Origin: Patescibacteria group bacterium
GTDB taxonomy: Bacteria; Patescibacteriota; Patescibacteriia; Patescibacteriales; JAQTRU01
Reading direction: 5' to 3'
NCBI GenBank assembly: GCA_041648955.1
Contig: JBAZOD010000002.1
Location: 1-37,500, forward strand
DNA length: 37,500 nucleotides
Part shown: piece after piece, positions 39 through 15,757 of the stretch
Position numbering within the stretch: the first letter of the stretch is position 1
Layout: every line of letters begins with the position of its first letter
The notes under the pieces: model-generated
Database searches by the model: none
The model's input: only the letters and a program-made list of their open reading frames with translations
What the model was told of the DNA's origin: nothing
Position numbers and translations under genes: made by a program

Positions 39-112
39 GGAGCGGTAGCTCAGTTGGTTAGAGCGCTGCCCTGTCACGGCAGAGGTCGCGGGTCCGAGTC
101 CCGTCCGCTCCG
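39..112 (+). tRNA. tRNA-Asp (anticodon GTC)
   Basis: Cloverleaf read by hand. Acceptor GGAGCGG/CCGCTCC, D-arm GCTC/GAGC, anticodon stem CTGCC/GGCAG with loop CTGTCAC (GTC), T-stem GCGGG/CCCGT, discriminator G. Near-identical in layout to classical bacterial tRNA-Asp. CCA is not encoded (G-CAG follows). Confidence 0.9.
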
Positions 113-1747
113 CAGTAATAATAAATTAGGGGTAGCAACCCCTTTTTTATTTTTATCTTCGCCGAAATCTTGGGTTATAGTGATAGCTTTTTGTTGATTA
201 TAAGAAATTAGAAATTTATATGGGCTTTCTTCTGTATTTATTAATGTTTTCGCTCTTAATATAGGGTTATAGTAAACAAATTTAAAATAGTCTCTTTTCT
301 CTTCTGGTGAAGCATTTTTAAATTTATCTACTAAATTACGATTAAAGTCTACATAGTTTGAACACAAATTAAACCAACCTTGATTTTGACTTTCTCTATC
401 TCCAATTTTTTCTCTAATTAAAGCTTGGTCTTGTAAAATTTTCCTCTTAAAATCTATAAATTGGTCATCAGATAATAATTCTCCATTTTTATTTTCAGGG
501 GATATTTTAAAATTTAATAAATTATCTAGTCTCGTCCCACATCTGTTTAGTTCTAATTGTTGCTGTTTCATTATTGAATCTCTATTTTTTATTTCTTGTT
601 CGTTTAATTTATTAATTTCTTCCATAGCTAAATTATAAAAGTCCTCATCAATTGAAACCTTTTTTAACCCCTCAATGATTTGCTCCTCAAGCACATCCTC
701 TCTTATATATAATTGTCCCGTGCATTTCATACAACGATAATAAGGATGCCCCTTTGAAGTTAATGCTGATATATTTCCCCCACAAACCCCGCATTTCAGT
801 AAATTTGAATATGTATAAAATCTCTTTTTTCCTATAGGTCGGCTGTGTTCTTTAAGAACTTGCTGAACGCGATAAAATAGTTCCTTGTTCACAATCGGGT
901 CGTGCCTAGTTTCGTCTGGAAGTTCTTCTGGCTCTATTATTACACCTTTCCAAAAAATCGCTCCACGATAAAATGGATTAGTTAATATTCTATAAATAGT
1001 TGCTTTACTTAATTTTTTTTTGCTCCTACCTCCTGTTAATCCCATTTCATAAGTTGTATCTCGTAATTTTTCAAGGGCGTATCTGCCAGTGGCAAAAAGT
1101 TTATATAATTCTAATACTATTGGAGCTAACAAAGGGTCAACCTCAATCCTTTTCAGTTTATTTTTTGAACATAAGATTTTTTGTTTTTCAAAAGTGTATT
1201 GTTTTCCCGATATCTTTTCGTTTTTATCAATATTTAAATAACCAACACAGGCATACCCAGGATATTCTCCTTTTCTAAGTTTTGATTTTATATCTCTTTT
1301 TACATATTCTGAAGTATCGTCAGAACTTTTCTTTTGCATAGCAAATTGAAGAGCGAGCAAAAATTCTTGCCCAGAATTTTTTCTATAAACTTCATTTGGA
1401 GTTCTAATTTCTTTAATAACACCATCTTTTAACATATCAATAATGATTCCTCCGTCTGTCATATTTCTCGCCAACCTTGATAAATGATAAACAAATATGG
1501 CGTTTGCTTTGCCTTTACGGATTAAATTTATCATTTTATTAAATTCTGGTCTTCCTGGCGAATAAGCACTCCTTGCTTCTTCAAACTCAGCGACAATATT
1601 TAAACCATTTGCTTTAGCATATTTAGAATTTTCAACTTTTTGTGCGGGCAAACTTAAAATTTGCCTATCCTCGGCTTCTGATGATTTTCTCCTATATTCT
1701 ACAAAAAACAATATTTCTGGTGTTAAATTTTCTTCTAATGTTAGCAT
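74..1747 (-). CDS. Large serine recombinase / integrase (resolvase catalytic domain, recombinase domain, zinc ribbon, coiled coil)
   Basis: N-terminal YRRKSSE...LSLPAQ serine-recombinase signature and VYHLSRLARN. Central recombinase-domain region. CGVCGG...YYRCMKC zinc ribbon followed by a long charged helical segment. The last roughly 20 codons run antisense across the tRNA gene. Confidence 0.9.
   Translation of the reverse strand: MLTLEENLTPEILFFVEYRRKSSEAEDRQILSLPAQKVENSKYAKANGLNIVAEFEEARSAYSPGRPEFNKMINLIRKGKANAIFVYHLSRLARNMTDGGIIIDMLKDGVIKEIRTPNEVYRKNSGQEFLLALQFAMQKKSSDDTSEYVKRDIKSKLRKGEYPGYACVGYLNIDKNEKISGKQYTFEKQKILCSKNKLKRIEVDPLLAPIVLELYKLFATGRYALEKLRDTTYEMGLTGGRSKKKLSKATIYRILTNPFYRGAIFWKGVIIEPEELPDETRHDPIVNKELFYRVQQVLKEHSRPIGKKRFYTYSNLLKCGVCGGNISALTSKGHPYYRCMKCTGQLYIREDVLEEQIIEGLKKVSIDEDFYNLAMEEINKLNEQEIKNRDSIMKQQQLELNRCGTRLDNLLNFKISPENKNGELLSDDQFIDFKRKILQDQALIREKIGDRESQNQGWFNLCSNYVDFNRNLVDKFKNASPEEKRDYFKFVYYNPILRAKTLINTEESPYKFLISYNQQKAITITQDFGEDKNKKGVATPNLLLLRSGRDSDPRPLP
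107..116 (+). repeat. Proximal copy of island direct repeat (attL-like core) inside the tRNA-Asp acceptor 3' strand
   Basis: cgctccgcag is identical to 15714-15723. Confidence 0.6.
128..148 (+). terminator. Short hairpin plus T-run downstream of tRNA-Asp
   Basis: aggggt-agca-acccct followed by tttttt. It lies inside the 3' tail of the antisense recombinase ORF. Confidence 0.4.
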
Positions 1748-1785
1748 ATAATATTATTATAGCGTATTCGTATGATATTATAAAT

Positions 1786-1932
1786 CTATAAGCTATTTAA
1801 TTTCTTTGGACTAGTATTTATTACTTGAATTAACATTGAAAACTTATCAAAAGCCTCCTGCTCGGTAAGTTTAATTGAGTATTTTTTTTCGTATAGTTCT
1901 ATAAATTTTTTTAGATTTTGCTCGGATATCAT
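1786..1932 (-). CDS. Small hypothetical protein (48 aa), hand-translated and below the ORF-track cutoff
   Basis: ATG at 1932 and TAG at 1786-1788. Translates to MISEQNLKKFIELYEKKYSIKLTEQEAFDKFSMLIQVINTSPKKLNSL. It sits immediately upstream of the integrase on the same strand. No recognisable motif. Confidence 0.3.
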   Translation of the reverse strand: MISEQNLKKFIELYEKKYSIKLTEQEAFDKFSMLIQVINTSPKKLNSL

Positions 1933-2003
1933 TTTACCAAAATAAAAAATAGTCTTATAAGACTATTGTAATATATTGGCGTTTATCTAAATTTAGCTAA
2001 CTG

Positions 2004-2744
2004 TTATCTAACTATATTATTATGATATTTCTCATTGATTTTAATCATTTTCATACTAAGCATTAAAAAATCCCTAACCCTTGCCTCTATCGCAATAGCT
2101 AGATTAATTTCACGACCAGCAGTATAAAATTTACTTATTCTCCCATTTCTTTTATCAATTTCTTCTCCCCAATCTTCAAAAATTTCATCATTATTCCAGT
2201 CATCTTTTGGTTTTTTGAATAAGGTATTTAACAAATCAGCTTGCATCTGTGCTCTGCTGAAATCAATTTCAGCCCCTTTAAAATATAGAATTTTAGTTTT
2301 GCCATTATAGCTTATTTTATCCTGATTATTAAATTTTATTTTTTCGCTGACTTGCTTTATTTTTTCTTTGCCAACAGAAAATTTCAATAACCTATCTCTG
2401 TATCCTTCTAATTTTTCAAAGTCAGGTTTTACTACTATATAACTATTATTTAGAAATTCCCGTTTTTCCTCTTCGGACAAAGGAGTTCCCTTTTCTTCGT
2501 CAATTACAATTTCACCCTCTCCCATAACAAAATCAAAATATTCTATTGCAGAACCAAAGCTCAACAATTTTTTATATTCTAAAAATTTTAAAATATTTAC
2601 AGCCTCTTCCTTGGTAACCCCTTCCTCGGTAAAATAATATTTTGTAATTAAAATTTTATCCCACTCATCTTCTAGGGTTGGATTTTCTTGAAATAAAATA
2701 TAGTCAATAATTTTTATGAGTTTTTCTTTTCTTTTTTCTTGCAT
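2004..2744 (-). CDS. Hypothetical protein (246 aa)
   Basis: Long uninterrupted ORF with non-repetitive composition, divergent from the HTH/methylase operon. No motif recognised. Confidence 0.6.
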   Translation of the reverse strand: MQEKRKEKLIKIIDYILFQENPTLEDEWDKILITKYYFTEEGVTKEEAVNILKFLEYKKLLSFGSAIEYFDFVMGEGEIVIDEEKGTPLSEEEKREFLNNSYIVVKPDFEKLEGYRDRLLKFSVGKEKIKQVSEKIKFNNQDKISYNGKTKILYFKGAEIDFSRAQMQADLLNTLFKKPKDDWNNDEIFEDWGEEIDKRNGRISKFYTAGREINLAIAIEARVRDFLMLSMKMIKINEKYHNNIVR

Positions 2745-2762
2745 ACTTATGTCATTATTTGG

Positions 2763-2791
2763 TTGACCCTATCTATATAATATTATATAAT
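2763..2791 (+). promoter_or_regulatory. Sigma70-like promoter for the HTH-methyltransferase operon
   Basis: TTGACC (2763-2768), 17 bp spacer, TATAAT (2786-2791). A perfect 2 x 10 bp tandem atataatatt (2775-2794) overlaps the -10 and may be an operator. Confidence 0.45.
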
Positions 2792-2821
2792 ATTATTGAG
2801 GTTTGTTGAAGTGCAAATTTT

Positions 2822-3010
2822 ATGCCAAATTCTAACAAAATACTATTAAATATAAACGAAGTAGCCGAACTTTTAGGTGTTCACCCTGAAACTTTAAGGC
2901 GTTGGGACAATGAGGGCAAACTAAAAGCTATTAGGATTGGTGATTTTGGACATAGAAAATACAGGAAAGAGGATATTGATAATTTACTTAATAATCACAA
3001 AAATGATTAA
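2822..3010 (+). CDS. Excisionase/MerR-type helix-turn-helix DNA-binding protein (62 aa)
   Basis: LNINEVAELLGVHPETLRRWDNEGKLKAIRIG...RKYRKEDIDNLL matches the excisionase-family HTH pattern. Its stop overlaps the downstream methylase start (ATGATTAA at 3003-3010). Confidence 0.8.
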   Translation: MPNSNKILLNINEVAELLGVHPETLRRWDNEGKLKAIRIGDFGHRKYRKEDIDNLLNNHKND

Positions 3011-3695
3011 TAACTGGATTAATACAATTCAAAATATTGATTGTTTAGATGGTTTTAAAAAATTATCTGATAATTCCGTTGATTTAATTTTAACTGACCC
3101 GCCTTATGGAATTAGCAGAGAGTTAAATTGTAAAAATCAGCGTTTAGGCACAACGGCTAAGTTAAATTTTCATTTTGGCGAATGGGATAAATTTAATAAA
3201 CTATGGTTTGATATTGCCGTTAAAAAAACAAAGGGCTGGATTATTAGTTTTTGTGCAAAAAAAGATATAGGTTTTTATTGGGATATATTGGAAAAAAATG
3301 ATTTTAAAGCTATTGATGTAATTGTTTGGCAAAAACCAGACCCAATTCCTTTAAACGGAAAAACTAAATTGCTTAATGCTTGGGAAGCCGCGATTATCGG
3401 CAAGAAAGCGGGAGCTCATTTCACCGGCAAATGCCGGCATAATATTTTTAAATATCAGGCACCAAAGGGCAAAAGTAGAATTCACCCGACCCAAAAACCA
3501 GTTGGTTTAATTGAGGATATAATATTACTAACTACTAAAAAGGGCGATATTGTTTTAGACCCATTTATGGGAAGCGGCACAACTGCCGTGGCTTGCATTA
3601 AAACAGGAAGAAATTATATAGGTTTTGAAATTGATAAAAAATATCACCGAGAATCTTTAAAAAGAATAAAGGAAACTCCTACGCCCTTGCTATAG
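3003..3695 (+). CDS. DNA methyltransferase, beta-class N6-adenine/N4-cytosine (M1)
   Basis: Motif IV LILTDPPYG is N-terminal, HPTQKP is present, and motif I FMGSGTT is C-terminal. That motif order indicates the beta group. The start is chosen at the ATG overlapping the HTH stop; the ORF track extends upstream to 2937. Confidence 0.9.
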   Translation: MINNWINTIQNIDCLDGFKKLSDNSVDLILTDPPYGISRELNCKNQRLGTTAKLNFHFGEWDKFNKLWFDIAVKKTKGWIISFCAKKDIGFYWDILEKNDFKAIDVIVWQKPDPIPLNGKTKLLNAWEAAIIGKKAGAHFTGKCRHNIFKYQAPKGKSRIHPTQKPVGLIEDIILLTTKKGDIVLDPFMGSGTTAVACIKTGRNYIGFEIDKKYHRESLKRIKETPTPLL

Positions 3696-4670
3696 TTTAA
3701 AAATGAGCTTAGCTTTTATCTTTTTTAAGTCGCCGTTAGATAGACTTGCTTGTAGACGCCTTAAAATTTTACCTTGTTCTTTAAATCGTCTTTTCTTGGC
3801 ATTTAGTTTTTGCTTTAACCGCTTGATAGTTTTAAGCGAGTCGGCTTCGTAGATTATTTTAATTTCAAAAGCGTCTTTGTCTACCACGGCTAAAATGATT
3901 TTATGGTCGCCTTTATATTTATTTAAAACATTTTTGGAAATATCCTGAAAATTCCAGTTATAATTTTTAGCCACTTTATACTCGTAATATCTGCCCTGTT
4001 TATCAACTGCGTCGTGGCCTAATTGTTCTGATAACACTCTATGCCCCAAAATTAATGAAACCAGTATTTCCCAAAATTTATTACTTGTCAGAACTTCATT
4101 GGTGCCAGTTATTTTTTCTATCTGTTTAGCTATTTTATATATTTCATCAAGCCATTTATAATATTTACCCTGTTTGCAGTTGCAATTATTATATGATTTC
4201 TGAATACCTAAATTTTTCTCAATTTGTTTAGAGCTGACATTAATCATTTTTCTGGCATTTTTAATTGGTTTGGTTTTTTCCGTTAGATAATCAGAAATAA
4301 TTTTTCCTGGCACATCATAATACCAATCAAATTTTGGAAAATTACCCGAATCGTCAATGTGAGCAAAAATTACCGCTTCTGCGTCATTTAACTTTTTTAT
4401 GGTAGTATCAGTATAGTCATTAAATGTCCAAGTGTGGTTAGAACTGTTTTCCTTATAATGTTTGTATTCATATTCGCCACCTTGTTGATTTTTAGCGTCC
4501 CTAGAGCCAGAATGCCCTGGAATTAAAAGGTGATTTAAATCATTGGCAATGACGATTTCAAATATTTTGGAATTTGATATGATATCAGTAACCCCGAATT
4601 TATTAAAAAAGTCGTCCTGAATTGCTTTAAGACGCTTTATAAAAATAGTTATATCTTCTTGTTTAGCCAT
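3690..4670 (-). CDS. Candidate type II restriction endonuclease with internally duplicated PD-(D/E)XK-like module
   Basis: Sandwiched between two methyltransferase genes. Two homologous halves align: SKIFEIVIANDLNHLLIPGHSGSRDAKNQQGGEYEYK...WTFND...VIFAHID and NKFWEILVSLILGHRVLSEQLGHDAVDKQGRYYEYK...WNFQD...IILAVVD. Each half carries a D...E-Y-K pattern. Confidence 0.6.
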   Translation of the reverse strand: MAKQEDITIFIKRLKAIQDDFFNKFGVTDIISNSKIFEIVIANDLNHLLIPGHSGSRDAKNQQGGEYEYKHYKENSSNHTWTFNDYTDTTIKKLNDAEAVIFAHIDDSGNFPKFDWYYDVPGKIISDYLTEKTKPIKNARKMINVSSKQIEKNLGIQKSYNNCNCKQGKYYKWLDEIYKIAKQIEKITGTNEVLTSNKFWEILVSLILGHRVLSEQLGHDAVDKQGRYYEYKVAKNYNWNFQDISKNVLNKYKGDHKIILAVVDKDAFEIKIIYEADSLKTIKRLKQKLNAKKRRFKEQGKILRRLQASLSNGDLKKIKAKLIFKL

Positions 4671-4681
4671 ATTTATAATAT

Positions 4682-5605
4682 ATGCCAGATAAATCTATTA
4701 TCACCATATCAAACAAATTTAATAAAATCAACGATTATAACTTAATTTGCGAGGATACTTTTAAGGTTTTACCGCAAATTCCTGATAATTTTGCCGACCA
4801 TTGCATTACCGACCCGCCCTATAATATTTCTGGTTATGATTTTAAAAAGGAAATTGGCTGGTTAAAATCAAACAAATATTGGAGCGAGCAGAAAAACTTT
4901 AAAAAAATTGAAGAGGACTGGGATAAATTTTCTAATGGCGATTATGAAAAATTTACTAAATTATGGTTAGATGAAATTTTCAGAATAGTTAAGCCAAACG
5001 GAAATATTATTATTTTTGGCAGTTACCATAATATTTATAAAATTGGTTATCTTTTGCAGAAAGACCATAAGAAAATTATTAATTCCGTAGTCTGGTTTAA
5101 ACGTAATGCTTTTCCAAATATAACCCAACGGATGCTTTGCGAAAGCACAGAACATATTATCTGGGCGGTTAATGAAACGGACGATAAGGCTAAAAATTGG
5201 ACTTTCAACTACGAAGAATTAAAAAAATATAATACGGTTAAAGAGTGTGGCAAATGCAAAAAAATTATTGATGCCGAAAATAAATATTGTCCTAATTGTG
5301 GAAATAATATTTTTAAAACCAAAAAATTACAATTAAGGAACTTATGGGATATTCCGTCAACGCCAGCAGGGGAAAGAAAACACGGAAAACATCCATCGCA
5401 AAAACCTATCCAAGTATTAGAAAGATTAATTGTTGGCGGAACGAAGAAAGATGAAATAATAATTGACCCCTTTGCTGGAAGTGGCACGACTGCTTTAGTA
5501 ACAAAAAATTTAGGTAGAAAATTTGTTGCCATTGATAACGACAAAAATTACTGTAAAATAATTTTAAATAGATTAAAAGACGGTTATCAGGAAAATATGA
5601 TTTAA
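4682..5605 (+). CDS. DNA methyltransferase, beta-class N6-adenine/N4-cytosine, with zinc-ribbon insertion (M2)
   Basis: CITDPPYNI (motif IV), HPSQKP, FAGSGTT (motif I). There is an inserted CGKC...CPNCG four-cysteine segment. The start codon is only 11 bp from the divergent endonuclease start. Confidence 0.9.
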   Translation: MPDKSIITISNKFNKINDYNLICEDTFKVLPQIPDNFADHCITDPPYNISGYDFKKEIGWLKSNKYWSEQKNFKKIEEDWDKFSNGDYEKFTKLWLDEIFRIVKPNGNIIIFGSYHNIYKIGYLLQKDHKKIINSVVWFKRNAFPNITQRMLCESTEHIIWAVNETDDKAKNWTFNYEELKKYNTVKECGKCKKIIDAENKYCPNCGNNIFKTKKLQLRNLWDIPSTPAGERKHGKHPSQKPIQVLERLIVGGTKKDEIIIDPFAGSGTTALVTKNLGRKFVAIDNDKNYCKIILNRLKDGYQENMI

Positions 5606-5629
5606 AAGCAGAAAATTTAAATTTAATGA

Positions 5630-5658
5630 TTGATTTTTTACAGTTTTTATGCTAATAT
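5630..5658 (+). promoter_or_regulatory. Sigma70-like promoter with extended -10
   Basis: TTGATT (5630-5635), 17 bp spacer, tgc-TAATAT (5653-5658). Confidence 0.4.
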
Positions 5659-5664
5659 TAAGAT

Positions 5665-5812
5665 AGTATTTAACAATTTATGGTCTAAACCTTAAATTTA
5701 TTTAAGGCATGGCCAAAAGTCCTAGACAGCAGAGATGGTCTTCTGACCAGTTTTAAGCTGTCTAGGCGTATATCCGAAAGGATATATTTAACTGCGTTGG
5801 AAGACCTTTTTT
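5665..5812 (+). ncRNA. Candidate structured leader or small RNA upstream of 5851..6204
   Basis: Hairpins: ccttaaa/tttaagg (5690-5707). A perfect 10-bp stem cctagacagc/gctgtctagg (5721-5730 / 5757-5766) encloses tggtc/gacca. atatcc-GAAA-ggatat (5768-5787). ggtcttc (5737-5743) can alternatively pair with gaagacc (5800-5806), which is followed by T6. Confidence 0.3.
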
Positions 5813-5850
5813 GTATTGAAAATTATCAATTATTTTTAACTCTTGAATTT

Positions 5851-6204
5851 ATGGCGACAATTAATGTATTGGCAGGAAATATAAAAAAGGGTAAATGGCA
5901 TTTTTATGGTTTTTTTGGCTCTACCGTAATGAATAGAGATTTTGGCGAAGATATTGAGTTAAGTAAATATAATGTTAAAAGTATTGAGATGATTAACGAG
6001 GAAAAAAGAAAAAAATTAGCAGGCACGGCTGGTTGGGGGCTTGTTGGAGCAGTAGCGTTAGGGCCGTTGGGAGCTATCGGCGGTATGCTTTTAGGCGGTA
6101 ATAAAAAAGAGGTTATTTTTACTTGCGAGTTAGAAGATGGCAGAAAATTTATGGCTTCAACTGACTCTAAGACTTGGATAAAAATACAATCAGCTAATTT
6201 TTAA
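5851..6204 (+). CDS. Hypothetical protein with glycine-zipper membrane segment
   Basis: ATG at 5851; the track start at 5797 is a TTG inside the structured leader. Contains AGTAGWGLVGAVALGPLGAIGGMLLGG, a glycine-zipper-like hydrophobic stretch. Confidence 0.55.
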   Translation: MATINVLAGNIKKGKWHFYGFFGSTVMNRDFGEDIELSKYNVKSIEMINEEKRKKLAGTAGWGLVGAVALGPLGAIGGMLLGGNKKEVIFTCELEDGRKFMASTDSKTWIKIQSANF

Positions 6205-6222
6205 GAAAATAAATCTAAAATT

Positions 6223-6645
6223 ATGTCTAAGACAAACAGCGACAAGGAAAATAATCAATCCAAAAATGATTTAAACGACAACGGGGAAGAACAAAAAAGT
6301 ATTACTCAATGGCAAACATCACTTTCAAAACAATTTAAGATTATTTTAATATTCTTTTTATTTGTAGCCTTAATTCTTGTCATATCTAATTATCATATTG
6401 TTTTAGACGCGACTGATTTAACTAAACCAATAATTTTTATTGAACGACCTTACTGGGGATTTTCTGATATGATTAGTAGTGTAAAAACTTGCACCGAAGC
6501 TCCCAGATATAGCGTGATGATAAATCACCCGTCCCTATGTAAAGCCTTGCAGAATGCTGGATACTTAGAAAGCGAGGAGGCGGGGATTAAAAGAATAGAG
6601 GCTGAAACTATGCAGAAATTGCAATTGTATAAATTGCTACAATAA
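6223..6645 (+). CDS. Hypothetical single-pass membrane protein (140 aa)
   Basis: Polar N-terminus followed by the hydrophobic helix IILIFFLFVALILVISNYHIV. No motif recognised. Confidence 0.55.
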   Translation: MSKTNSDKENNQSKNDLNDNGEEQKSITQWQTSLSKQFKIILIFFLFVALILVISNYHIVLDATDLTKPIIFIERPYWGFSDMISSVKTCTEAPRYSVMINHPSLCKALQNAGYLESEEAGIKRIEAETMQKLQLYKLLQ

Positions 6646-6690
6646 AGTGATTGGATTGTTTATGCTATAATAAAAGTGTAAGAAAAAAGT

Positions 6691-7662
6691 ATGGAAATAA
6701 GAAAAACTATTGAACTATTGGCTGTTTTTTCTATCGCACTTTTGTTGTTGACTGGATGCGAGGCGACAAACAATTCGCAGGGTAATAATCAAAACGCTAA
6801 CGTAGTGGCGAGTTCTTCTGATAATAATAAACAGGAAGAACCAAAGGCGAAAGAACAAAAACCAGTAGGGCAAGGAAAAAAACAAATAGAAAAGCAAGCA
6901 ACTCAAAAGACCGATACTAAAACAAAAAGTGAAGCTGAAAATAGTATAAGCCAAACAAAAACTGTGGCTGATAATATTTTAAGCGACACAAAAAATAACA
7001 GCGAAGAAATAAAATATTATAAAGTTATTAAAGTAGTGGACGGCGATACAATTGCCGTTGACATTGACGGGGTTAGCGAAACTTTGCGGTTGATTGGTAT
7101 AAATACTCCTGAAACAGTAGACCCCAGAAAACCTGTTGAATGTTTTGGCGTTGAAGCGAGTAATAAAGCTAAAGAATTATTAAGCGGTAAGTCGGTAGCT
7201 TTAGAAAAAGACAACAGCCAAGATGAAAGAGATAAATATGGCAGGCTTTTAAGATATATAAGGACAAAAGAGGGTTTATTCTATAATTTAGAAATTATCA
7301 AACAAGGCTATGCCTATGAATATACTTATGATGTTCCGTATAAATATCAAAGCGAGTTTAAGGAAGCTGAAAATTACGCCCGCACTAAAAAATTAGGTTT
7401 ATGGGCTGACGGGACTTGCCCAGCAAAAATAGATAGCTCTGCTACCGCTCCTGTTGCCCCTGAAATAAAACCAACAGAAACTATAGTTAAGCCGCCCGAA
7501 ACAAAATCACAATGCGAATGTTCATCTAATAAATATAATTGCCCTGATTTTAAAACTCAGGCCGAAGCTCAGGCTTTATGTGAATGGTGTGGCGGAACCA
7601 GTAATGACATCCACAGATTAGACAGCGATAAAGACGGAAAGGTTTGTGAATCATTGCCATAG
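6691..7662 (+). CDS. Secreted lipoprotein thermonuclease (staphylococcal-nuclease fold) with C-terminal Excalibur calcium-binding domain
   Basis: Lipobox LLLLTGC. SNase-like VVDGDTIAV...LRLIGINTPE...ECFG...GRLLRYI...GYAYEY...GLW. C-terminal CPDF...DSDKDGKVCE is an Excalibur DxDxDG motif. Confidence 0.85.
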   Translation: MEIRKTIELLAVFSIALLLLTGCEATNNSQGNNQNANVVASSSDNNKQEEPKAKEQKPVGQGKKQIEKQATQKTDTKTKSEAENSISQTKTVADNILSDTKNNSEEIKYYKVIKVVDGDTIAVDIDGVSETLRLIGINTPETVDPRKPVECFGVEASNKAKELLSGKSVALEKDNSQDERDKYGRLLRYIRTKEGLFYNLEIIKQGYAYEYTYDVPYKYQSEFKEAENYARTKKLGLWADGTCPAKIDSSATAPVAPEIKPTETIVKPPETKSQCECSSNKYNCPDFKTQAEAQALCEWCGGTSNDIHRLDSDKDGKVCESLP

Positions 7663-8388: not shown

Positions 8389-8727
8389 ATGCGGCAAAAT
8401 TTTATGCAATTAATGACCAAAGAGTTGGAAAAACAATTTAAAAAGGTCGGCAGTCAGGAAGATGTTAAAGACCCGATTGTGGTTTGTAAATTTTTTAATC
8501 CCTCGGGTATTGGCTATTGGTTCGCTACCGAGTATAACCCTGAAGATAAAATATTCTTCGGGTATGTTTCTTTCTTCGGCGACCATAATGATGAGTGGGG
8601 TTCGTTTAGTTTAAAAGAATTGGAGGAATATTGCGGCCCGTTCGGATTGGGCATAGAAAGAGATTTACATTTCCATTCTGAACCTATTAGTAAAGTTATG
8701 CCTAAGGCAATTTTAAATATAATTTAA
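8389..8727 (+). CDS. DUF2958-like protein
   Basis: KELEKQFKKVGSQE...DPIVVCKFFNPSGIGYWFATEY...FGYVS...EWGSFSLKELEE...GLGIERDLHF matches my recollection of the DUF2958 family common on conjugative or integrative elements. The true start may be an internal Met. Confidence 0.7.
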   Translation: MRQNFMQLMTKELEKQFKKVGSQEDVKDPIVVCKFFNPSGIGYWFATEYNPEDKIFFGYVSFFGDHNDEWGSFSLKELEEYCGPFGLGIERDLHFHSEPISKVMPKAILNII

Positions 8728-8750
8728 CAAAAAAGACATACTATTTTGTT
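8726..8750 (+). repeat. Quasi-palindromic site, copy 1 (aacaaaa-N11-ttttgtt)
   Basis: The 15-nt caaaaaagacatact (8728-8742) is identical to 15609-15623. It lies just upstream of the small serine recombinase ATG at 8764. Confidence 0.5.
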
Positions 8751-9534
8751 AATTAAAAAATTTATGCAAGACAAACTAAACTATTATGCATATTTAAGAG
8801 TTTCAACGGAAAATCAAAAAAATGACCAAACTATTCAAATACAGGAAGTAGCCATTAAAGAATACGCCGAAAAGAATAACATTAATATTGTTAAAATGTT
8901 TGAAGATAATGGAGTATCTGGTGGACTTGAAGATAGGCCGGCATTAGCCGAGTTATTTGATGCTCTTGAAACAAACGCTAAAGATATTGAAGGGATTATC
9001 ATTTTCAAATTAGACCGACTCGCTCGGGATGTCAGAATTCAAGAAAATTTAATTTATGACCTGCAAGAAAAGCGGGGAAAGAAAATTATATCTTTAAGCG
9101 AGCCAGACTTAAACTCAAAAGATATAACCAGAGTTTTGATGAGACAAATGATTGGAGCTATCAGCCAATATGAAAAGGGCTTGATAGCAATGCGTTTAAA
9201 GGCTGGAAGAATGAACAAGTTGAGAAAAGGCGGATTTCCAGGCGGTGGCGTTGCCTTGGGCTATGAAATAATTGATAATGATTTAATCTTGAATCAAGAG
9301 GAAGTAAAAATTGTCAAACAGATTTATTACTTAAAGCGGTATAAGCGATTTAATTTAACCGCAATTGCTAAAATCTTAAACAGCAATAACATTAAAACTC
9401 CTAAGGGTGGAATAAAGTGGTATGCGGGAACGGTTAAGTATATTTTAAATAATTCTATCTATCGCGGGCGAATGACTTATAGCGGAGTGGAAGCCATAAG
9501 GGGCGATTTATCTTTAATCCTTAATAAGAAATAG
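8746..9534 (+). CDS. Small serine recombinase (resolvase/invertase family)
   Basis: YAYLRVSTENQ catalytic-serine motif, RPALAEL, IIIFKLDRLARD, and a C-terminal recombinase-domain segment (GGVALGYE...YRGR). The likely true start is ATG 8764 (MQDKLNYYAY); 8746 is TTG. Confidence 0.9.
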   Translation: MLIKKFMQDKLNYYAYLRVSTENQKNDQTIQIQEVAIKEYAEKNNINIVKMFEDNGVSGGLEDRPALAELFDALETNAKDIEGIIIFKLDRLARDVRIQENLIYDLQEKRGKKIISLSEPDLNSKDITRVLMRQMIGAISQYEKGLIAMRLKAGRMNKLRKGGFPGGGVALGYEIIDNDLILNQEEVKIVKQIYYLKRYKRFNLTAIAKILNSNNIKTPKGGIKWYAGTVKYILNNSIYRGRMTYSGVEAIRGDLSLILNKK

Positions 9535-9600
9535 GGTTTTAGGGAAAGACGATAGATATTGACTATAACTAAAAAAAGGCAAAAAATTGCCCTTTTTATG
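9531..9600 (+). repeat. Site S2: recombination-site-like repeat with core gactataact (9561-9570)
   Basis: Its left arm resembles the S1 left arm (29/40). The core plus right arm (aaaaaaaggcaaaaaattgcccttttt) match S3 at 33/40. The right arm forms a small ggcaa/ttgcc hairpin between A and T runs. Confidence 0.5.
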
Positions 9601-9621
9601 CTAAATAAATTAAAGAAAATT

Positions 9622-10428
9622 TTATAGACTTATAATTTTGCAACTATTTACCTCGCCCCGACATTTATATCCTATTGTTAAATCTATAATTTTTCCATAT
9701 CTCTCGGTTGATACTAACGCTCCAATAAATCTTTCATCCTTTAGTTCATTTAATAAATCTAGGGTTTTAAAATTTTTGTTTTTATATTCAATCAAGTTTT
9801 TTGCAACAGGTATTTTTTTTATATTATAAAGCAATTCAGTCAACTCTGATGGTTGCCCAAATTTTGATTCAGATAAATCTAGTTGTCCTCCTAAAAAATG
9901 ACCATTCATTAAATAAAACCAAACCCCGTCATACTCTTTCATTATGGAAGTAAAATTACCTTTTTCGTCATTTGCTCCTGCTTTTATATAAATATATGCA
10001 TCTTCTATTTCTCCTGTTATTTTAATTTTTCTTCCAGCATTTGTTAATGCCTCCTCGTCTTTTTGTATATAATTGTCAGGAGTTTCTATGCCATCTAAAT
10101 AAATAGGGGTTTTCTTATATAAATTTGAATTATATTTTTCAAAATCAGTTTGTTCTTTTACTGCCTCTTCTTTTTCCTCGGGTTTAATATTTTCAATATT
10201 TATCTCTTTGTTGTCAATATTTTGGTTAACGGTAGTCTCTGGAATATTATTATTTTTATCTTTAGATAAATTTTTAACGATATATAAAACACCAAAAATA
10301 GACAATAACAAAATAATTACCGTCATAATATCTAAAGCTATGCCCCTAATTCTTTCTTTTATATTCATTTTGCTTTTTATTTCTTCCTCTATTTTTTCTC
10401 TTAATTTTTGCTCATCACCTTGAGACAT
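9622..10428 (-). CDS. Hypothetical membrane-anchored protein (268 aa)
   Basis: N-terminal charged segment, then the helix IALDIMTVIILLLSIFGVLYIV. No motif recognised. Confidence 0.55.
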   Translation of the reverse strand: MSQGDEQKLREKIEEEIKSKMNIKERIRGIALDIMTVIILLLSIFGVLYIVKNLSKDKNNNIPETTVNQNIDNKEINIENIKPEEKEEAVKEQTDFEKYNSNLYKKTPIYLDGIETPDNYIQKDEEALTNAGRKIKITGEIEDAYIYIKAGANDEKGNFTSIMKEYDGVWFYLMNGHFLGGQLDLSESKFGQPSELTELLYNIKKIPVAKNLIEYKNKNFKTLDLLNELKDERFIGALVSTERYGKIIDLTIGYKCRGEVNSCKIISL

Positions 10429-10778
10429 AAAGTTGATAATGTATTAATGATAAATTTATAGAAACAAAGAAATAGAAAAAAGATAAATGTGATGTGGAAA
10501 TAATTACTCCAATCTTTTATCCTTTCATATCCCACAAAAGTTCCTAAAGCTAAAAGTAGGTTGCTAATATTATCTAAATCAATCATTTGGTCATAGCTCA
10601 TTCCATAGACTTTCTTTACCCATGATAGTAACAATAGACTTGTTAATACTATTCTACTAACTTTCCATAAATTGTCGCTTTCTTCAATAAGTCTATGCAA
10701 TTTAACCAAAATATTCTTTCTGTCTTTTAAAAAATTTATTTCCAACATATTTAAAGATGTATTTTGACACCTTATCAA
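10401..10778 (-). CDS. Hypothetical membrane protein (125 aa)
   Basis: ORF with hydrophobic segments that overlaps the downstream gene by 28 nt. Coding status uncertain. Confidence 0.35.
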   Translation of the reverse strand: MIRCQNTSLNMLEINFLKDRKNILVKLHRLIEESDNLWKVSRIVLTSLLLLSWVKKVYGMSYDQMIDLDNISNLLLALGTFVGYERIKDWSNYFHITFIFFLFLCFYKFIINTLSTLCLKVMSKN

Positions 10779-10838
10779 AATTATTGTATCTAAGTCAAGC
10801 TGTTAATTCTAGATATAAAAAATAAGGTGCGTAATTAA

Positions 10839-11333
10839 CTATATATTGTTTAAATTTTCTTTGATAATTTCAAAATTAATATTATCGCTATGCCTGATAT
10901 GGATAATTTTTATTCCCGCTGATTTTAAAGTGTTATTTACAAAATAATCTCTTCTCTGCCTTTTGGGGCTATCGTGGGTTTTGCCGTCATACTCAATCGC
11001 CAATACGGGTTTAAGATATGGCTTCTCAAAAATAACGAAGTCTATAGTTTTCCTATTAATTTTATTTTGATAAGTCCAAAAACTTCTGACCGAATTATTT
11101 ACATTAACAATACTGCCAAGAACTATCTGGGGGAAGACCACATAATTGTCAGGAATAATTTGTTGGATATTCTCAAAAAATTTTCTTTCAGGAATGTTTA
11201 ATAGAAATTCTTTCTTCTTGTAAGTTTGGAAGTCGTCATATTCTTCCTCTTGAGCCAAAAAATATTCTTTGAAAGCATATACGGCTATGAGCAAGATGAT
11301 TATTCCACCTAAAGTTAGATATGTATTTAGCAT
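10839..11333 (-). CDS. Membrane-anchored DUF2726-like (endonuclease-fold) protein
   Basis: N-terminal helix LTLGGIIILLIAVYAF. PERKFFENIQQIIPDNYVVFPQI...IDFVIFEK...PVLAIEYDGKTHD...RRD resembles the DUF2726 pattern as I recall it. Confidence 0.7.
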   Translation of the reverse strand: MLNTYLTLGGIIILLIAVYAFKEYFLAQEEEYDDFQTYKKKEFLLNIPERKFFENIQQIIPDNYVVFPQIVLGSIVNVNNSVRSFWTYQNKINRKTIDFVIFEKPYLKPVLAIEYDGKTHDSPKRQRRDYFVNNTLKSAGIKIIHIRHSDNINFEIIKENLNNI

Positions 11334-11402
11334 ATAGCTAGAATTTTAATCTTAGCTATATTATATCACAAATTTGGTAATATGCTTTATTTTCTCAATA
11401 TA

Positions 11403-11451
11403 TTCAATATTGGCTATAACTAAAAAAGGGCAAGTAATTGCCTTTTTTGTA
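11403..11451 (+). repeat. Site S3: recombination-site-like repeat with core ggctataact (11412-11421)
   Basis: Preceded by ttcaatatt. The right arm aaaaaagggcaagtaattgcctttttt is homologous to the S2 right arm. Confidence 0.5.
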
Positions 11452-11467
11452 AGTTTATGGACAAAGA

Positions 11468-14400
11468 ATGTTCAAAGTATTAATATTTAAGGGTAATTCA
11501 AAATATATGTCTTATAAAAAGGAGCAAATTAGTCCAACCACAAAAATAAAAGTTTATATTAATTGTGGCGGTAAATGCGGTTTTCCTGAATGCAAGGAAC
11601 ATTTAGTTGAAGAAAATAGTATTATAGGTCAGATAGCCCATATTAAAGCCCAACAACCAGGAGGGCCAAGATTTGATATTACTTTAACCAAAGATAAAAT
11701 AGATGCCCCAGAAAATTTAATTGCTTTTTGTCAAAAACACCATAAAATAATTGATGACCATCCAGATAAATATTCAGTAGAAGATATTTCAAATTGGAAA
11801 AAAGATATTGAGGAATGGGCTAAAAAATCACCAGAAAAAACCGAACTTGGAAAAAAATTAATATTGATAATATTATCTGACTTAGAAAAGGAGTTAGACA
11901 GGGGCAACGGAGAATATGTGCTAAAAACCATACAATCGCTTAAAATTATTACGGAAACGATTATTAAAGATGATATTATTGGCAGTGAAATTGGGATATT
12001 AGAAGCAAAATCAAAACAAGCCCTGGAAGATGTTGAGGGAGCTATAAAAATTTACGAAAGCCTTTCAAAACTTTATCCTAAAAATGTTAAACCTATCTTG
12101 TATTTGGCTGAAATTTATTTAAATAAATGCGACTATGAAAAAAATAAAGAGCTCTTAGAACAGGCAGAGAAAATAGATAATAGCCACTGGCTTTTTGTGA
12201 TTGAACAGCTTATTAGAGAATTTCGTTTAAACAAAAAAATTGATACATCAAAAATAAATGAAAAGGATTTTCCAGAAGATAAGAAGCAAAAGGCAACCTA
12301 CTATCGTATCTATTCCCTGTTTTATCAAAACGAAAAAAACGATATTAAGGCAGATGAGTTTATAGAAAAATCAATTAAACTATATCCCTACTCATTTTCT
12401 GCTTTTAATTTGAAAATATCTCATAATCTACAGAGGTTAATTGAAAAAGGGTTTCCTCTTAATCATATTGAAAAAGCCGAGGACATATTAAGTCAGATTA
12501 AAGAGATTGAAAAAGAAAAAAATAATTGGGACAGATTACATATCAGAGGTAGAGCTACCCTTGAATTTAGAAAATTTTATATTTATATAATACAACAAGA
12601 TGGTAATAAAATTATTTCAACAGGCAAGGGGTTAATTGACCTCATACTTAAGTGCTCATTTGATTTAGATATAGATAATTTTTTATCCTTTCTCCTTGCA
12701 AATTATCGTCCAGAAGAAAAAGACTTTGAAAAAATTATTTCATATTTATCAAATAAAAAAATCTCTTACGATTTAGCTAAAATACTCGCTTTTCAATTTT
12801 GTGAAAAAGGCAAGTTATTAACTGATGGCAAGAATTTTTTATCAGCCAAAAATGAAAAGATTAAAAATTTAATTTTGAATATAGAAGAAAACAAAGAAAG
12901 CGACGTGATTAATTTTCTTAAAGAAGATTTGCAGTTAATGATAACTTTTGCAAATTGCTTAAAAACCAACTCAGGTTTAAGAAAAAAAATAATAGACAGT
13001 GTGCCAGATGATGAGAATATTCAAAAAGATAGAATCTATTTATTGTATTATTCTGACATAAAAGCATATGATGACGCCTTTAGGATTATCCAAAATATTG
13101 ATTTTGAAAATGCAAGTTATCTTGACTGTAAAATATCTTTAAAAGCAGTCCGTGAGAAACAAGCGTGGGAAATGGAGGCAAAAATTTTAGAAAGACTATT
13201 CCAATTAGAAAAAGATGAAAGAATAAAATTATCGTTTAAATTAGACCATTTTACAGCTTGTATGAAGATGGAGGATTATTTGGAAGTTATTAATATAGGT
13301 AAATATTTATTGGATAACCCTAAGACATTTGAGCTAATGGATAAAAAAAATCAAGAATTATTATTAGGACAAACAATCACAGCTTATCTACAAAGAAGTG
13401 AAGAAAAAGAGGCTTTAGGAATGCTTCAAAAATATCCAAATATTATTGAGAGCTTTGAGTTTATTATTTCGGTAGAGGCTGAAGTTTACTTAAAAAATGG
13501 AGATTATAAAAAAGCATTATCATCTTTATGTAGAGGAGTAAAAAAAATTGGGAAACCAACAAAGGAACAATATGGATATTTATTTTTGTCTTTTACTCAA
13601 TTAAGTAATTCTGGTTTTGCTAAAATTGAACCACTTGAAAAAGTTGTAAGTAATTCTTTTATAAAATTCCAAAATCAAGAGCAATGGTATTATATCGGAG
13701 ATGGGGACGAGCTAGACGCCACTAAAATTATTTCAGCAAATAATAAATACAATTTATTAATTAACAAAAAAATAAATGATAATATAGATTTTCCTGAGGA
13801 TAAATATCAAACCAACAAAGAACAGAGAATAGTTGAAAATATTTTGAGTCTAGAGGCTTATATAAATTGGAAATCCCACGATAGCTTTTTTAGTTTATCA
13901 AAACAAGGAAGATGGGACGCAGGAATAGCGATTGAAGTGCCGAATAAAGATGATAGTATAGATGTTAATAATGTAATTAATTTTATTAAAGACCAACAAG
14001 AGAGAGGCAGAAATTTTTTTGATGATTATTGTTCAAATAATTATCCTTTCGCATTTTTAGCTTTAAGCGAGGGGGGAGTAACCAATGCCATCGGCAGAAT
14101 TACAAATGAAAACAAGGGATTTATAAGATTTTCTGATGGTTCAATCCAAGATATTGACCGTCAAAGAAAAGTAGCTGAAAAAATACTTAACGGTTCAGAT
14201 ATTTTTTTAGATGGGACAACGGCTCTTTTCTTGGCTGAAACAGGATTGTTAAAAAAAATAGTGCCTTTCATCCCTAATTTAAAAGTTCCTCAATCAGTTA
14301 TTTCTTTCTTATTTAAAGTATTGGAAAAATTTAATATTTCACCTGGGCAGGTTGGTCATATGCGATGTGCTAATGACCAACTAGTATTTGATAAGGTTGA

Positions 14401-15151
14401 TATTGAAAAAAATAACAAAATAAAAGAAAATTTTAAACAGAGCATAGAAATTTTAGAGAAAGATAAAAAAAGTATTTTTTCTATCTCTCAAGCAAATAAA
14501 TCTGAGCACTTTTCAGAAAGTAATATTGTCCCCGAATTGGTGGATGCCTGTATTTTAGCACAAAAGAATGACGGTATTGTATTAACTGAGGATTTTTTAT
14601 ATTTGCAAGCCAATAATTTGCAAACAAATAAAGGTATACCAGAATATTGTTCACTGTTTTCTTTAATTAAAGAGTTGCTTAAAAAAGATAAAATATCTTT
14701 TGAGGACTATCTGAATGCCTTTTATTATTTGTCATCGTATAGGTGTAGGTTTCTAGATTTAAATACTGGTATTTTAATTAGGGCAATTTTTGGAGAAGAT
14801 AATAAATTGATTTTTGAATTTAAAAATATTAGAAAGTTAAATTTAGCTTTAACTTTATCCGAAGAATATGGAGTAAAAACAGAGGCCGCTATTCAGGTTA
14901 TGGGGGGATTTTTAGTAAGAATTATTATAGCCAATATTGTTTCTGTAGAAAATGCAAATAAAGTTTACAGAGAGGTGTTGCCAACTTTTTTCTTAAATCG
15001 TGATAAAAAAATTATCGGAAGATTATTGTTTGAATATTGTTCAAACTCTTTAGAGAAAATACTTAAAGAAAAATACATTTATTCCTTGCCGATTTTGATG
15101 AGTGAAAAATTAGCGGCTTTAGAAAAACAAATAAACGCACAACTGTTATAG
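11468..15151 (+). CDS. 1227-aa multidomain protein: N-terminal HNH nuclease motif, long TPR-like helical repeat region, C-terminal PIN-like domain
   Basis: HNH: CGGKCGFPEC...QIAHIKAQQPGGPRFD...NLIAFCQKHHKIIDD (about nt 11564-11760). TPR-like: AIKIYESLSKLYPKNVKPILYLAEIYLNKCDYEKNKELLEQA and VYLKNGDYKKALSSL. PIN-like: DIFLDGTTALFLAE (from nt 14198) ... ELVDACILAQKNDGIVLTEDFLY. An alternative start is ATG 11507. Confidence 0.8.
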   Translation: MFKVLIFKGNSKYMSYKKEQISPTTKIKVYINCGGKCGFPECKEHLVEENSIIGQIAHIKAQQPGGPRFDITLTKDKIDAPENLIAFCQKHHKIIDDHPDKYSVEDISNWKKDIEEWAKKSPEKTELGKKLILIILSDLEKELDRGNGEYVLKTIQSLKIITETIIKDDIIGSEIGILEAKSKQALEDVEGAIKIYESLSKLYPKNVKPILYLAEIYLNKCDYEKNKELLEQAEKIDNSHWLFVIEQLIREFRLNKKIDTSKINEKDFPEDKKQKATYYRIYSLFYQNEKNDIKADEFIEKSIKLYPYSFSAFNLKISHNLQRLIEKGFPLNHIEKAEDILSQIKEIEKEKNNWDRLHIRGRATLEFRKFYIYIIQQDGNKIISTGKGLIDLILKCSFDLDIDNFLSFLLANYRPEEKDFEKIISYLSNKKISYDLAKILAFQFCEKGKLLTDGKNFLSAKNEKIKNLILNIEENKESDVINFLKEDLQLMITFANCLKTNSGLRKKIIDSVPDDENIQKDRIYLLYYSDIKAYDDAFRIIQNIDFENASYLDCKISLKAVREKQAWEMEAKILERLFQLEKDERIKLSFKLDHFTACMKMEDYLEVINIGKYLLDNPKTFELMDKKNQELLLGQTITAYLQRSEEKEALGMLQKYPNIIESFEFIISVEAEVYLKNGDYKKALSSLCRGVKKIGKPTKEQYGYLFLSFTQLSNSGFAKIEPLEKVVSNSFIKFQNQEQWYYIGDGDELDATKIISANNKYNLLINKKINDNIDFPEDKYQTNKEQRIVENILSLEAYINWKSHDSFFSLSKQGRWDAGIAIEVPNKDDSIDVNNVINFIKDQQERGRNFFDDYCSNNYPFAFLALSEGGVTNAIGRITNENKGFIRFSDGSIQDIDRQRKVAEKILNGSDIFLDGTTALFLAETGLLKKIVPFIPNLKVPQSVISFLFKVLEKFNISPGQVGHMRCANDQLVFDKVDIEKNNKIKENFKQSIEILEKDKKSIFSISQANKSEHFSESNIVPELVDACILAQKNDGIVLTEDFLYLQANNLQTNKGIPEYCSLFSLIKELLKKDKISFEDYLNAFYYLSSYRCRFLDLNTGILIRAIFGEDNKLIFEFKNIRKLNLALTLSEEYGVKTEAAIQVMGGFLVRIIIANIVSVENANKVYREVLPTFFLNRDKKIIGRLLFEYCSNSLEKILKEKYIYSLPILMSEKLAALEKQINAQLL

Positions 15152-15179
15152 AAAGATTTTATTTTAGAGATTTTAAAAT

Positions 15180-15500
15180 TCACAAATTTTCAATAATCCG
15201 AAAAATTCTAGTAAAATTTTCCCAATCTTTCAATCGTGTCTCCTGCCATCCTCTGCTGGTTCTGATTTTTAAAAAGATTTTTTGCCTCTGAATTATTATC
15301 TGAATGAATTTTACCTTATCCTTTATAAACCAAATTCTTCTCTTAGTAAAAACAACCTCGCAATTATATCTTGCTGGGATTATTTTTATTAATTTATCAG
15401 CTTGACCCCTTAGCCTTAGATTATCCGTGTTTAATAGGTGGTAGCTTAGGTCGTAAAGCCTTGCCTGGCTGGGGCGGGTATATTTATTAGTATTAGTCAT
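15180..15500 (-). CDS. Hypothetical basic protein (106 aa)
   Basis: Intact ORF convergent with the 1227-aa gene. No motif recognised. Confidence 0.45.
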   Translation of the reverse strand: MTNTNKYTRPSQARLYDLSYHLLNTDNLRLRGQADKLIKIIPARYNCEVVFTKRRIWFIKDKVKFIQIIIQRQKIFLKIRTSRGWQETRLKDWENFTRIFRIIENL

Positions 15501-15536
15501 AAAGTTAAGTAAAGGTAATATATAGGCTTTTATTTA

Positions 15537-15592
15537 GGGGGTAAAATTAATGGCTTTTGCTACTTGCCGGCAACGCCATTAATTTTACCCCC
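15537..15592. repeat. Perfect 18-bp inverted repeat with 20-nt spacer
   Basis: gggggtaaaattaatggc (15537-15554) and gccattaattttaccccc (15575-15592). The spacer contains the palindrome ttgccggcaa. It is 37 bp upstream of the minus-strand ORF start at 15500. Confidence 0.8.
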
Positions 15593-15607
15593 TTTAGTAT
15601 TAGCCTA

Positions 15608-15630
15608 TCAAAAAAGACATACTTTTTTGA
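15608..15630 (+). repeat. Quasi-palindromic site, copy 2 (tcaaaaaag-acata-cttttttga)
   Basis: Shares 15 identical nt (15609-15623) and 21/23 overall with 8728-8750, in the same orientation. Confidence 0.5.
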
Positions 15631-15713
15631 CGAAAAAACTTAGCTATGATTTACTGTAGGTATATAATAATAGCCTTTAATAGACTTGAAGTAGGTTATA
15701 GTCTCGTCTATTA

Positions 15714-15723
15714 CGCTCCGCAG
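15714..15723 (+). repeat. Distal copy of island direct repeat (attR-like core)
   Basis: cgctccgcag is identical to the tRNA-Asp 3' end at 107-116. It is flanked on the island side by tatta, whose reverse complement taata flanks the proximal copy on the island side. Confidence 0.6.
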
Positions 15724-15730
15724 AAAAAAG

Positions 15731-15757
15731 AAAAACCCACAATCTGTGGGTTTTTTT
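15731..15757 (+). terminator. Rho-independent terminator, probably the original tRNA-Asp terminator
   Basis: aaaaacccac-aatct-gtgggttttttt. Confidence 0.6.

Follow-up and report, generated by a model that had tools for sequence, protein, structure and literature searches.

A tRNA-Asp island in a Patescibacteria genome whose serine integrase gene holds its own attachment site

Analysis of a 37,500-nucleotide stretch of DNA from a Patescibacteria group bacterium (GenBank assembly GCA_041648955.1, contig JBAZOD010000002.1; below, the window) indicates with high confidence that a large serine recombinase (LSR) whose gene contains the attP site placed an integrative island, positions 116-15713, at the 3′ end of tRNA-Asp(GTC). 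The window is the entire contig C2 of this assembly (G000; 1.0 Mb, 104 contigs, 85% complete). A first-pass annotation, made from the letters of the window, had proposed an integrative island at this tRNA gene; orthologous LSRs at tRNA-Asp in five other genomes, with homologous island ends in four of them, bear this out. The short repeat on which that proposal leaned is weak when taken alone, and it is the LSR family, the conserved far ends and the presence/absence polymorphism that make the island solid.

The integrase has the parts that define its class, namely a resolvase-type catalytic domain with its serine, a recombinase domain and a zinc ribbon (Resolvase, Recombinase and Zn_ribbon_recom; PF00239 at 7.6e-19 over residues 16-161, PF07508 at 6.5e-13 and PF13408 at 3.7e-8), in agreement with the initial call of a large serine integrase at the tRNA-proximal end. 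The nearest NCBIfam model is XisF/CcrB, under its cut-off, and a PDB sequence search gave weak LSR matches (E about 1e-5), the one to A118 spanning residues 251-399. The catalytic Ser and Arg of the Y..R.S motif and the four zinc-ribbon Cys residues are invariant in 74 aligned homologues, the window LSR included. An AlphaFold model of the 57% identical homologue P0017 (mean pLDDT 87.7; confident to about residue 518) shows a coiled-coil insert formed by helices 364-411 and 423-466, both with pLDDT >90.

At its 3′ end the integrase gene overlaps the island boundary. Its final 13 codons (74-115, stop codon included) cross the first repeat copy into the antisense strand of tRNA-Asp, and the TGA stop falls within the anticodon loop of the tRNA. 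The core lies inside the integrase open reading frame (ORF), and when the island ends are joined by coordinates the frame stays open for 24 further residues, which gives a protein of 571 aa. The same end-joining in four relatives yields 568 aa with a 27-residue tail that is near-identical among the four; the window tail aligns with it and shares the motif ITYF...YY.(I/V)P. Of the 28 tail codons of these relatives, stop included, 12 show synonymous variation only and 4 differ in the residue encoded, all of the latter within the last seven positions. Such third-position variation is not expected from constraint on a DNA site and therefore points to purifying selection on the protein frame. The tail is thus a selected coding sequence, yet only the circle connects it to a start codon.

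Both forms of the protein occur among homologues. At least 59 of the 120 homologues listed end in residues of an antisense tRNA T arm (RDSNPRP-like), and 16 of the 120 have the circle-type motif in their tail. The contigs that encode three of the 16 are 8.5, 12.1 and 12.2 kb long, the size of whole islands, and a 2.6-kb metagenome contig (L059) encodes a circle-type tail with the tRNA absent. The motif is also carried by two distant homologues on IMG/VR contigs. End-joining recovered it in two more islands, one of 5.9 kb with a 19-nt repeat at tRNA-Ser(cga) (G024; phase checked by hand) and one of 11.3 kb at tRNA-Gln(ctg) (G046). It was not seen in the circle-form tail of a tRNA-Glu(ttc) integrase on contig C20 of the window's own assembly, so the motif cannot be said to extend to every subgroup. 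In the model of P0017, itself a circle-form homologue, the tail (residues 525-566) is a low-confidence helix with pLDDT 45-56.

The exact 10-mer cgctccgcag occurs twice in the window. The second copy lies where it had been placed, at 15714-15723, and the first at 106-115, one base to the left of the 107-116 given originally; 15,598 bases separate them, and the island measures 15608 bp as compared with relatives. Allowing one mismatch, there are 3 matches in the window against 0.49 expected, a number reached in 1 of 100 shuffles, and the repeat count taken alone is weak evidence for att sites. The repeat itself is real; however, identity between attL and attR across the family is limited to CCGCA (110-114 in attL), and the 10-bp identity is peculiar to the window island, where it is a local extension of that core. 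Serine integrase sites are typically a short core with imperfect dyad symmetry. The 5-bp inverted repeats first noted beside the core are present in the sequence and recur in four relatives as ACTA...TAGT with unchanged spacing, their symmetry being centred on the closing CC of the acceptor stem. The crossover is accordingly best placed, from this symmetry, at CC 110-111, although the exact dinucleotide is an assignment by inference.

The surroundings of the two cores fit this arrangement. The second copy is followed by a hairpin and T-run, confirming the terminator that had been expected there; this is the native tRNA terminator, and an island-borne hairpin with T-run at 128-143, behind the first copy, now stands in for it. 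To the right, the order rpsO, NYN gene, pnp is syntenic in relatives. Also as first described, the island is richer in AT than the core genes, with 30.5% GC compared with 37.7% for the remaining window and 36.6% for the genome.

A survey of 301 genomes from the order found LSR homologues in 163 (E<=1e-20). Among the 29 best-scoring loci in genomes other than G000, 24 have an LSR ORF that stops inside a convergent tRNA gene, with an overlap of 39-42 nt in 13 of the 24; two of the five exceptions run off their contig and three have no tRNA call. The targets at the 24 loci are tRNA-Ser (8, with four anticodons), Asp (6), Asn (5), Gln (2), Tyr (2) and Arg (1). Five relatives stand closest to the window LSR (G059, G044, G009, G081 and G119; 52-59% identical). 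They come from five different families of the order, and all five end 40-41 nt into a convergent tRNA-Asp(GTC), as does a 30% identical LSR in G133. Four of the five have a conserved stretch of about 60 nt, with GGTTATA inside and CCGCA at its end, 8.2-14.0 kb downstream of the tRNA, and its counterpart is recognisable at 15660-15722 of the window; the fifth lies on too short a contig. The four islands measure 12360, 8177, 14024 and 8664 bp, against 15608 bp in the window. The window island belongs to a large clade of LSR elements found in this order of small genomes (Patescibacteria-type), each subgroup being tied to one tRNA species. One relative carries a further LSR: in G009, a gene for 548 aa at 14208-15854 (minus strand) of L054 (G009:C18), 28% identical to the first LSR there, crosses the attR core of the first island and stops within its P arm, so that two LSR islands stand in tandem at one tRNA-Asp.

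The locus also exists without the island. Contig C74 of the same assembly is identical to window positions 1-115 and 15714-15812 and lacks the island; its left flank adds tRNA-Leu and tRNA-Val upstream of tRNA-Asp, and between the flanks it has 197 GC-rich bases followed by a 19-nt copy of the tRNA 3′ end, which joins the native terminator by the same junction as in the window. Since the island and this unrelated insert have an identical right-hand junction, tRNA 3′ end to native terminator, the simplest reading is that two elements inserted independently into the same reconstructed attB. An island-free allele with both flanks exists, but the plain empty site envisaged by the first-pass annotation, with the tRNA joined to 15724, was not seen in any genome examined. 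In the sister genus (G001) the flanks are syntenic, which together with C74 supports continuity on the left, and a 1.2-kb two-gene cassette lies between tRNA-Asp and rpsO. This cassette (L002, G001:C3, 2650-3975, minus strand; 194 and 134 aa) has a CCGCA end after a faintly P-arm-like sequence and may be a decayed LSR element. A search with the right flank of the G059 island in five genomes of its genus likewise gave no plain empty site; the locus is rearranged there, with an inverted tRNA-Asp in G109 and G006 and another att-like remnant in G087.

Metagenome runs give a population view of the same locus. A landfill run (X1) holds all sampled query words and is probably the source of the assembly; its contigs break at 86-115 and 15714-15743, that is, exactly at both repeat copies. 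Depth in X1 is 9.3, 7.8 and 8.8 for island pieces and 25.9, 23.7, 24.9, 22.5 and 20 for flank pieces, from which roughly one third of the sampled population carries the island, contig depth being a coarse measure and X1 not independent of an assembly that it probably produced. In a lake-water run from another study (X2), island pieces show 0-2 differences over 313-561 bases, which suggests that the island spread recently. Two further runs (X3 and X4) contain near-identical flank pieces and, of the island, diverged bits only; they hold a small share of the query words, and absence of the island is not implied.

These observations can be combined into a mechanism. The circular island would express the full-length integrase of 571 codons, as suggested by the selected circle-only frame and by database proteins of the circle type, and this enzyme would pair attP, at the 3′ end of its own gene, with attB, the acceptor end of tRNA-Asp and its terminator; the conserved and symmetric ends point to this pairing. 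LSRs exchange strands at a central 2-bp dinucleotide, and excision needs a directionality factor. Here the exchange would probably fall at the CC that closes the acceptor stem. The integrated sequence shows the outcome: the tRNA is regenerated and supplied with the island hairpin as terminator, the LSR has lost its last 24 residues, which are left at the far end of the island, and the integrated ORF ends instead in 10 residues from the antisense tRNA. More tentatively, the tail swap could be a built-in state switch, used across the clade, in which the complete enzyme is made only from the circle. The tRNA-tailed chromosomal enzyme would then differ in activity, being either inert, so that the island is locked, or competent for excision, and directionality would be set by the topology of the integrase gene, beyond a separate directionality factor alone. 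We think this somewhat doubtful, and any function of the swap is a matter of inference.

Several facts speak against an island that is active in the way just described, and most of them lend themselves to a different history, in which a single LSR insertion became a fixed, immobile relic and presence/absence reflects old strain divergence rather than ongoing excision. Missing the conserved tail, the integrase encoded in the chromosome might be inactive, and no directionality factor was recognised for the island. The constructed plain attB and circle attP junctions have no exact match in the G000 assembly, and neither 115/15724 nor 15713/116 is among the 15 of 65 contig joints listed. The C74 allele is not an excision product, because a different element occupies it. 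The backbone next to the integrase in five relatives (an HTH_36 protein, a DUF5659 protein and a 283-aa protein) is missing from the window island, which holds a truncated second recombinase and a repeat-bounded block; with the backbone gone and this second recombinase truncated, the island may be a decaying composite. Continuity on the left is visible in the window over 38 bases only, as the window is a whole contig that starts just ahead of tRNA-Asp, and the depth estimate has the limits given above. However, an old relic fits poorly with an intact integrase ORF with conserved catalytic and zinc residues, with the near-identical island pieces in X2 that suggest recent spread, and with circle-only tail codons that are still open and keep their motif. 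We consider such a relic possible but distinctly less than probable; present-day mobility of the LSR island would be in keeping with these last points.

A prophage remnant, or a phage satellite that uses a serine integrase for lysogeny, is much less likely still. LSRs are typical of temperate phages, and distant homologues of about 30% identity lie on IMG/VR contigs. However, ten island ORFs gave no match to PHROG structural, packaging or lysis families and fifteen gave none to virion or packaging families in Pfam, and the islands of the relatives hold restriction-modification (R-M) systems, a LexA-like repressor and DUF proteins, with virion genes not among them. The satellite-like nature suggested at first thus found no backing, whereas the reported lack of phage structural genes (ten ORFs in PHROG, fifteen in Pfam) and of conjugation genes (fifteen ORFs in Pfam) held. 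That the 10-bp repeat is a coincidence, and the AT-rich block a variable chromosomal region without site-specific boundaries, could appeal to the one shuffle in 100 that equalled the match count. It is nearly untenable in view of the homologous attL and attR ends in four other genomes, the X1 assembly breaks precisely at both copies, which argue against a chance repeat, and an ORF that runs across the joined ends under purifying selection. An LSR-inserted island at tRNA-Asp is the best account of these data.

The features of the locus are collected in Table 1. Among the cargo, the two methyltransferases and the ORF between them probably constitute a type II R-M system, the nuclease being putative; a second, weak match of the middle ORF is to PADLOC REase_II (7.4e-5). 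The staphylococcal-nuclease-type protein also matches NCBIfam NucI-like (1.2e-32, under cut-off). The short second recombinase aligns to positions 83-321 of the 651-position integrase family phrog_95 and is a relic of another element. Three minus-strand ORFs fill the repeat-bounded block, including a DUF2726 nuclease-like protein at 10839-11333. The 1227-aa protein matches PF20698 (2.7e-9) and TPR families, with PADLOC matches of its N-terminus to effector and SduA models reaching 1e-27. Seven island ORFs have no family, six of them scanned and one, of 62 aa (7871-8059), unscanned. In the fifteen island ORFs scanned with Pfam, there was no match for relaxase, type IV secretion or coupling proteins and no tyrosine recombinase domain; ParB and RecF were not found among island ORFs, and the ORF neighbouring the integrase has no family. 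An accessory or defence island without transfer genes of its own is a fair description. The first-pass label of an integrase-only island captured the accessory cargo and missed the attP inside the integrase gene. The cargo of relatives likewise includes other R-M systems and the LexA-like repressor, along with DUF4238 and DUF5677 proteins. The LOOT RNA, which sits between a methyltransferase and an ORF without family, has a 77% identical second copy at C6:10480-10618 of the same assembly; a literature search for the term 'LOOT motif' found no paper.

Table 1. Features of the tRNA-Asp island and its flanks (window coordinates).
Feature	Position	Strand	Details
tRNA-Asp(GTC)	39-113 (ARAGORN); 39-112 (Rfam RF00005, 69.7 bits)	+	Integration target; CCA not encoded
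LSR, integrated form	74-1747	-	557 aa; Pfam PF00239, PF07508, PF13408
attL core	106-115		10-mer shared with attR; family-wide part CCGCA at 110-114
Hairpin and T-run	128-153	+	Island-borne; directly 3′ of the tRNA, within the integrase ORF of the other strand
ORF, 246 aa	2004-2744	-	Same strand as the integrase and upstream of it; unmatched in Pfam, PADLOC, PHROGs and NCBIfam
N4/N6 DNA methyltransferase (type II)	2937-3695	+	PF01555 3.3e-41; PADLOC MTase_II 2.8e-51
Candidate restriction endonuclease	3690-4670	-	Between the methylases; PvuII-like PF09225 2.3e-4, 21.6 bits against a cut-off of 25
Second N4/N6 DNA methyltransferase	4682-5605	+	PF01555 1.7e-43; PADLOC MTase_II 1.7e-72
LOOT RNA (Rfam RF03000)	5682-5800	+	62 bits against a gathering score of 46.4
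Staphylococcal-nuclease-type nuclease	6691-7662	+	Excalibur Ca-binding domain; PF00565 7.9e-23; PADLOC SNc+LTD 1.7e-47
DUF2958 protein	8389-8727	+	PF11171 7.6e-18
Truncated second serine recombinase	8746-9534	+	262 aa, N-terminal half; PF00239 3.1e-31, partial PF07508
Repeat-bounded block	9556-11448		42-bp direct repeats 9556-9597 and 11407-11448, 88% identical
1227-aa protein	11468-15151	+	Endonuclease-effector-like N-terminus, TPR repeats, PIN of TPR-GreAB-C-PIN type
ORF, 106 aa	15180-15500	-	No Pfam, PADLOC, PHROG or NCBIfam family
P arm	15640-15713	-	Codes for the last 24 residues and stop of the LSR; in frame only in the excised circle
attR core	15714-15723		Second 10-mer copy
Native tRNA hairpin terminator	15731-15755		Directly after the attR core; T-run
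rpsO	15810-16262	+	PF00312 2e-32; first core gene of the right flank

The 197-base segment that replaces the island in C74 (L021, 90-288, minus strand) is a copy of a GC-rich, conserved module of about 200 nt. Other copies in G000 lie at C11:3392-3590 and at C20:2016-2210, 4406-4624, 14323-14516 and 14527-14749. Nine copies from eight genomes, beside tRNA-Asp, Glu, Ser, Gln and Leu, share a fold of 46 pairs in 8 helices, in which 92% of cells are paired against 34-44% with slid partners and 18 pairs are changed on both sides against 3-7; none of 500 shuffles reached the observed values. A covariance model (R1) finds 7 copies in G000 and hits in 44 of 150 genomes of the order; a single genome can have as many as 13, and some copies form tandem arrays. 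The C74 copy matched nothing in Rfam at E up to 1. Each copy stands between the tRNA terminator and a 13-21-nt copy of the 3′ end of that tRNA, and the 5′ segment of the module is antisense to this tRNA's T arm.

On contig C20 two elements at tRNA-Glu(ttc) have the module as their far end, and copies of the 3′ end of this tRNA lie 7.9 and 10.3 kb downstream: the first element is an LSR island with a Rep_ORF2/G2P-like gene and two methylases, and the second, of 2.4 kb, has a CARDB protein. The GC-rich segment of C74 had also been considered as a tyrosine-integrase scar, a reading that was dropped because the same module is found at the far ends of LSR islands on this contig. A second family of LSR elements seems to have this module as its far end and often to leave it behind by itself as a miniature element. 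Eight of the 54 tRNA calls of G000 (Asn, Leu-caa, Glu-ctc, Lys-ttt, Arg-tcg, Cys and two Asp) are followed, 70-240 nt downstream, by 12 nt or more that repeat the 3′ end of the gene itself. At about 37350-37420 the window itself has a GC-rich, palindrome-containing segment (CTGCCGGCAGG type) that is like the ends of miniature tRNA-linked elements.

Elsewhere in the window, five tandem paralogues of 477-523 aa (23265-30744, minus strand) each have a C-terminal PEP-utilising-enzyme mobile domain, and a separate gene for a PPDK N-terminal (ATP-binding) domain lies near them (19201-20175, minus strand). An M20-family peptidase gene (20925-22184, plus strand) has 51-57% GC in a 37% GC genome and is possibly foreign.

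In textbooks, tRNA genes are where tyrosine integrases insert. Indeed, a passage of the paper on Islander, a widely used island database, holds that only tyrosine recombinases, and not serine recombinases, are known to target tRNA genes (tDNAs) (PMC4383910). As in Islander-type islands, an intact tDNA and a displaced 3′ fragment flank the window island, the integrase adjoins the tRNA, and the tRNA is restored. The enzyme family is unrelated, however, and the displaced fragment is 5-10 nt in the window family compared with tens of nt; with its 10-nt fragment, no tyrosine recombinase among the 15 ORFs and no arm-type sites, the window island falls outside the Islander definition.

The closest precedent is provided by the ssrA islands of Dehalococcoides, where the passages available of McMurdie et al. 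2011 describe a CcrB-like serine recombinase, DsiB, in reversed orientation beside attL at the tmRNA gene (PMC3146451). The dsiB gene contains an embedded att repeat and the islands are in tandem (PMC3146451), an arrangement also seen here in G009 and on contig C20 of G000. Both systems thus have an LSR of about 540 aa that is CcrB-like, encoded on the reverse strand at attL and with the repeat in its gene, and both carry accessory cargo. Going by the same passages, the Dehalococcoides islands differ in their tmRNA target, a 20-bp repeat and exchange in the T loop, whereas the window family has true tRNA targets and a core of 5-10 bp at the acceptor end. The Dehalococcoides module as described includes the small serine recombinase DsiA, RecF, ParB and Mom, and the window module has no DsiA-like partner. 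A conserved circle-only C-terminal tail is not described in those passages.

Phage LSRs (A118, TP901-1, phiC31 and Bxb1) integrate in protein-coding genes or intergenic sites, with attP beside the integrase gene. They share with the window LSR the domain set, the coiled-coil insert, short att sites and little identity between attP and attB, although similarity to the solved LSRs is low (E about 1e-5). The tyrosine integrases of SSV-type archaeal viruses have attP inside the gene, and integration splits it; that split falls in the gene body, whereas the window family swaps only the last 24-27 codons. A recombination site within a serine integrase gene is also described for the streptococcal IME_Spy2096_SNF2 (PMC5357655), an element that disrupts snf2 of an integrative and conjugative element and for which the passages available describe neither a tRNA target nor a swapped tail. 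In the accessible part of the report on Prochlorococcus tycheposons, 27 of 937 elements have an LSR and 910 of 937 have tyrosine recombinases (10.1101/2020.12.28.424599). Tycheposons are likewise cargo islands with site-specific integrases, and a figure legend has full and partial tRNA genes drawn; many of them, in contrast, carry replication genes, and the integration sites of the LSR-bearing ones are not stated in those passages. In a literature search that covered the main texts of openly accessible papers, no account came up of serine integrases that target tRNA genes in Patescibacteria or the candidate phyla radiation, and none of a conserved circle-only LSR tail.

The window island is thus a serine-integrase tDNA island, of a kind broadened here from tmRNA to many tRNAs, with a selected geometry that splits the integrase gene. 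Against textbook expectation, a large clade of serine integrases targets tRNA genes of six amino-acid specificities. In those members that end inside a tRNA gene, the identity of the tRNA could be read from the last residues of the LSR, which gives a simple means for islands and their targets to be found in metagenomes, and the clade adds natural integrases with short, conserved and predictable target sites. The islands point to a route by which very small genomes acquire defence genes, and the circle-only tail offers a testable idea of how a serine integrase could sense that it has integrated.

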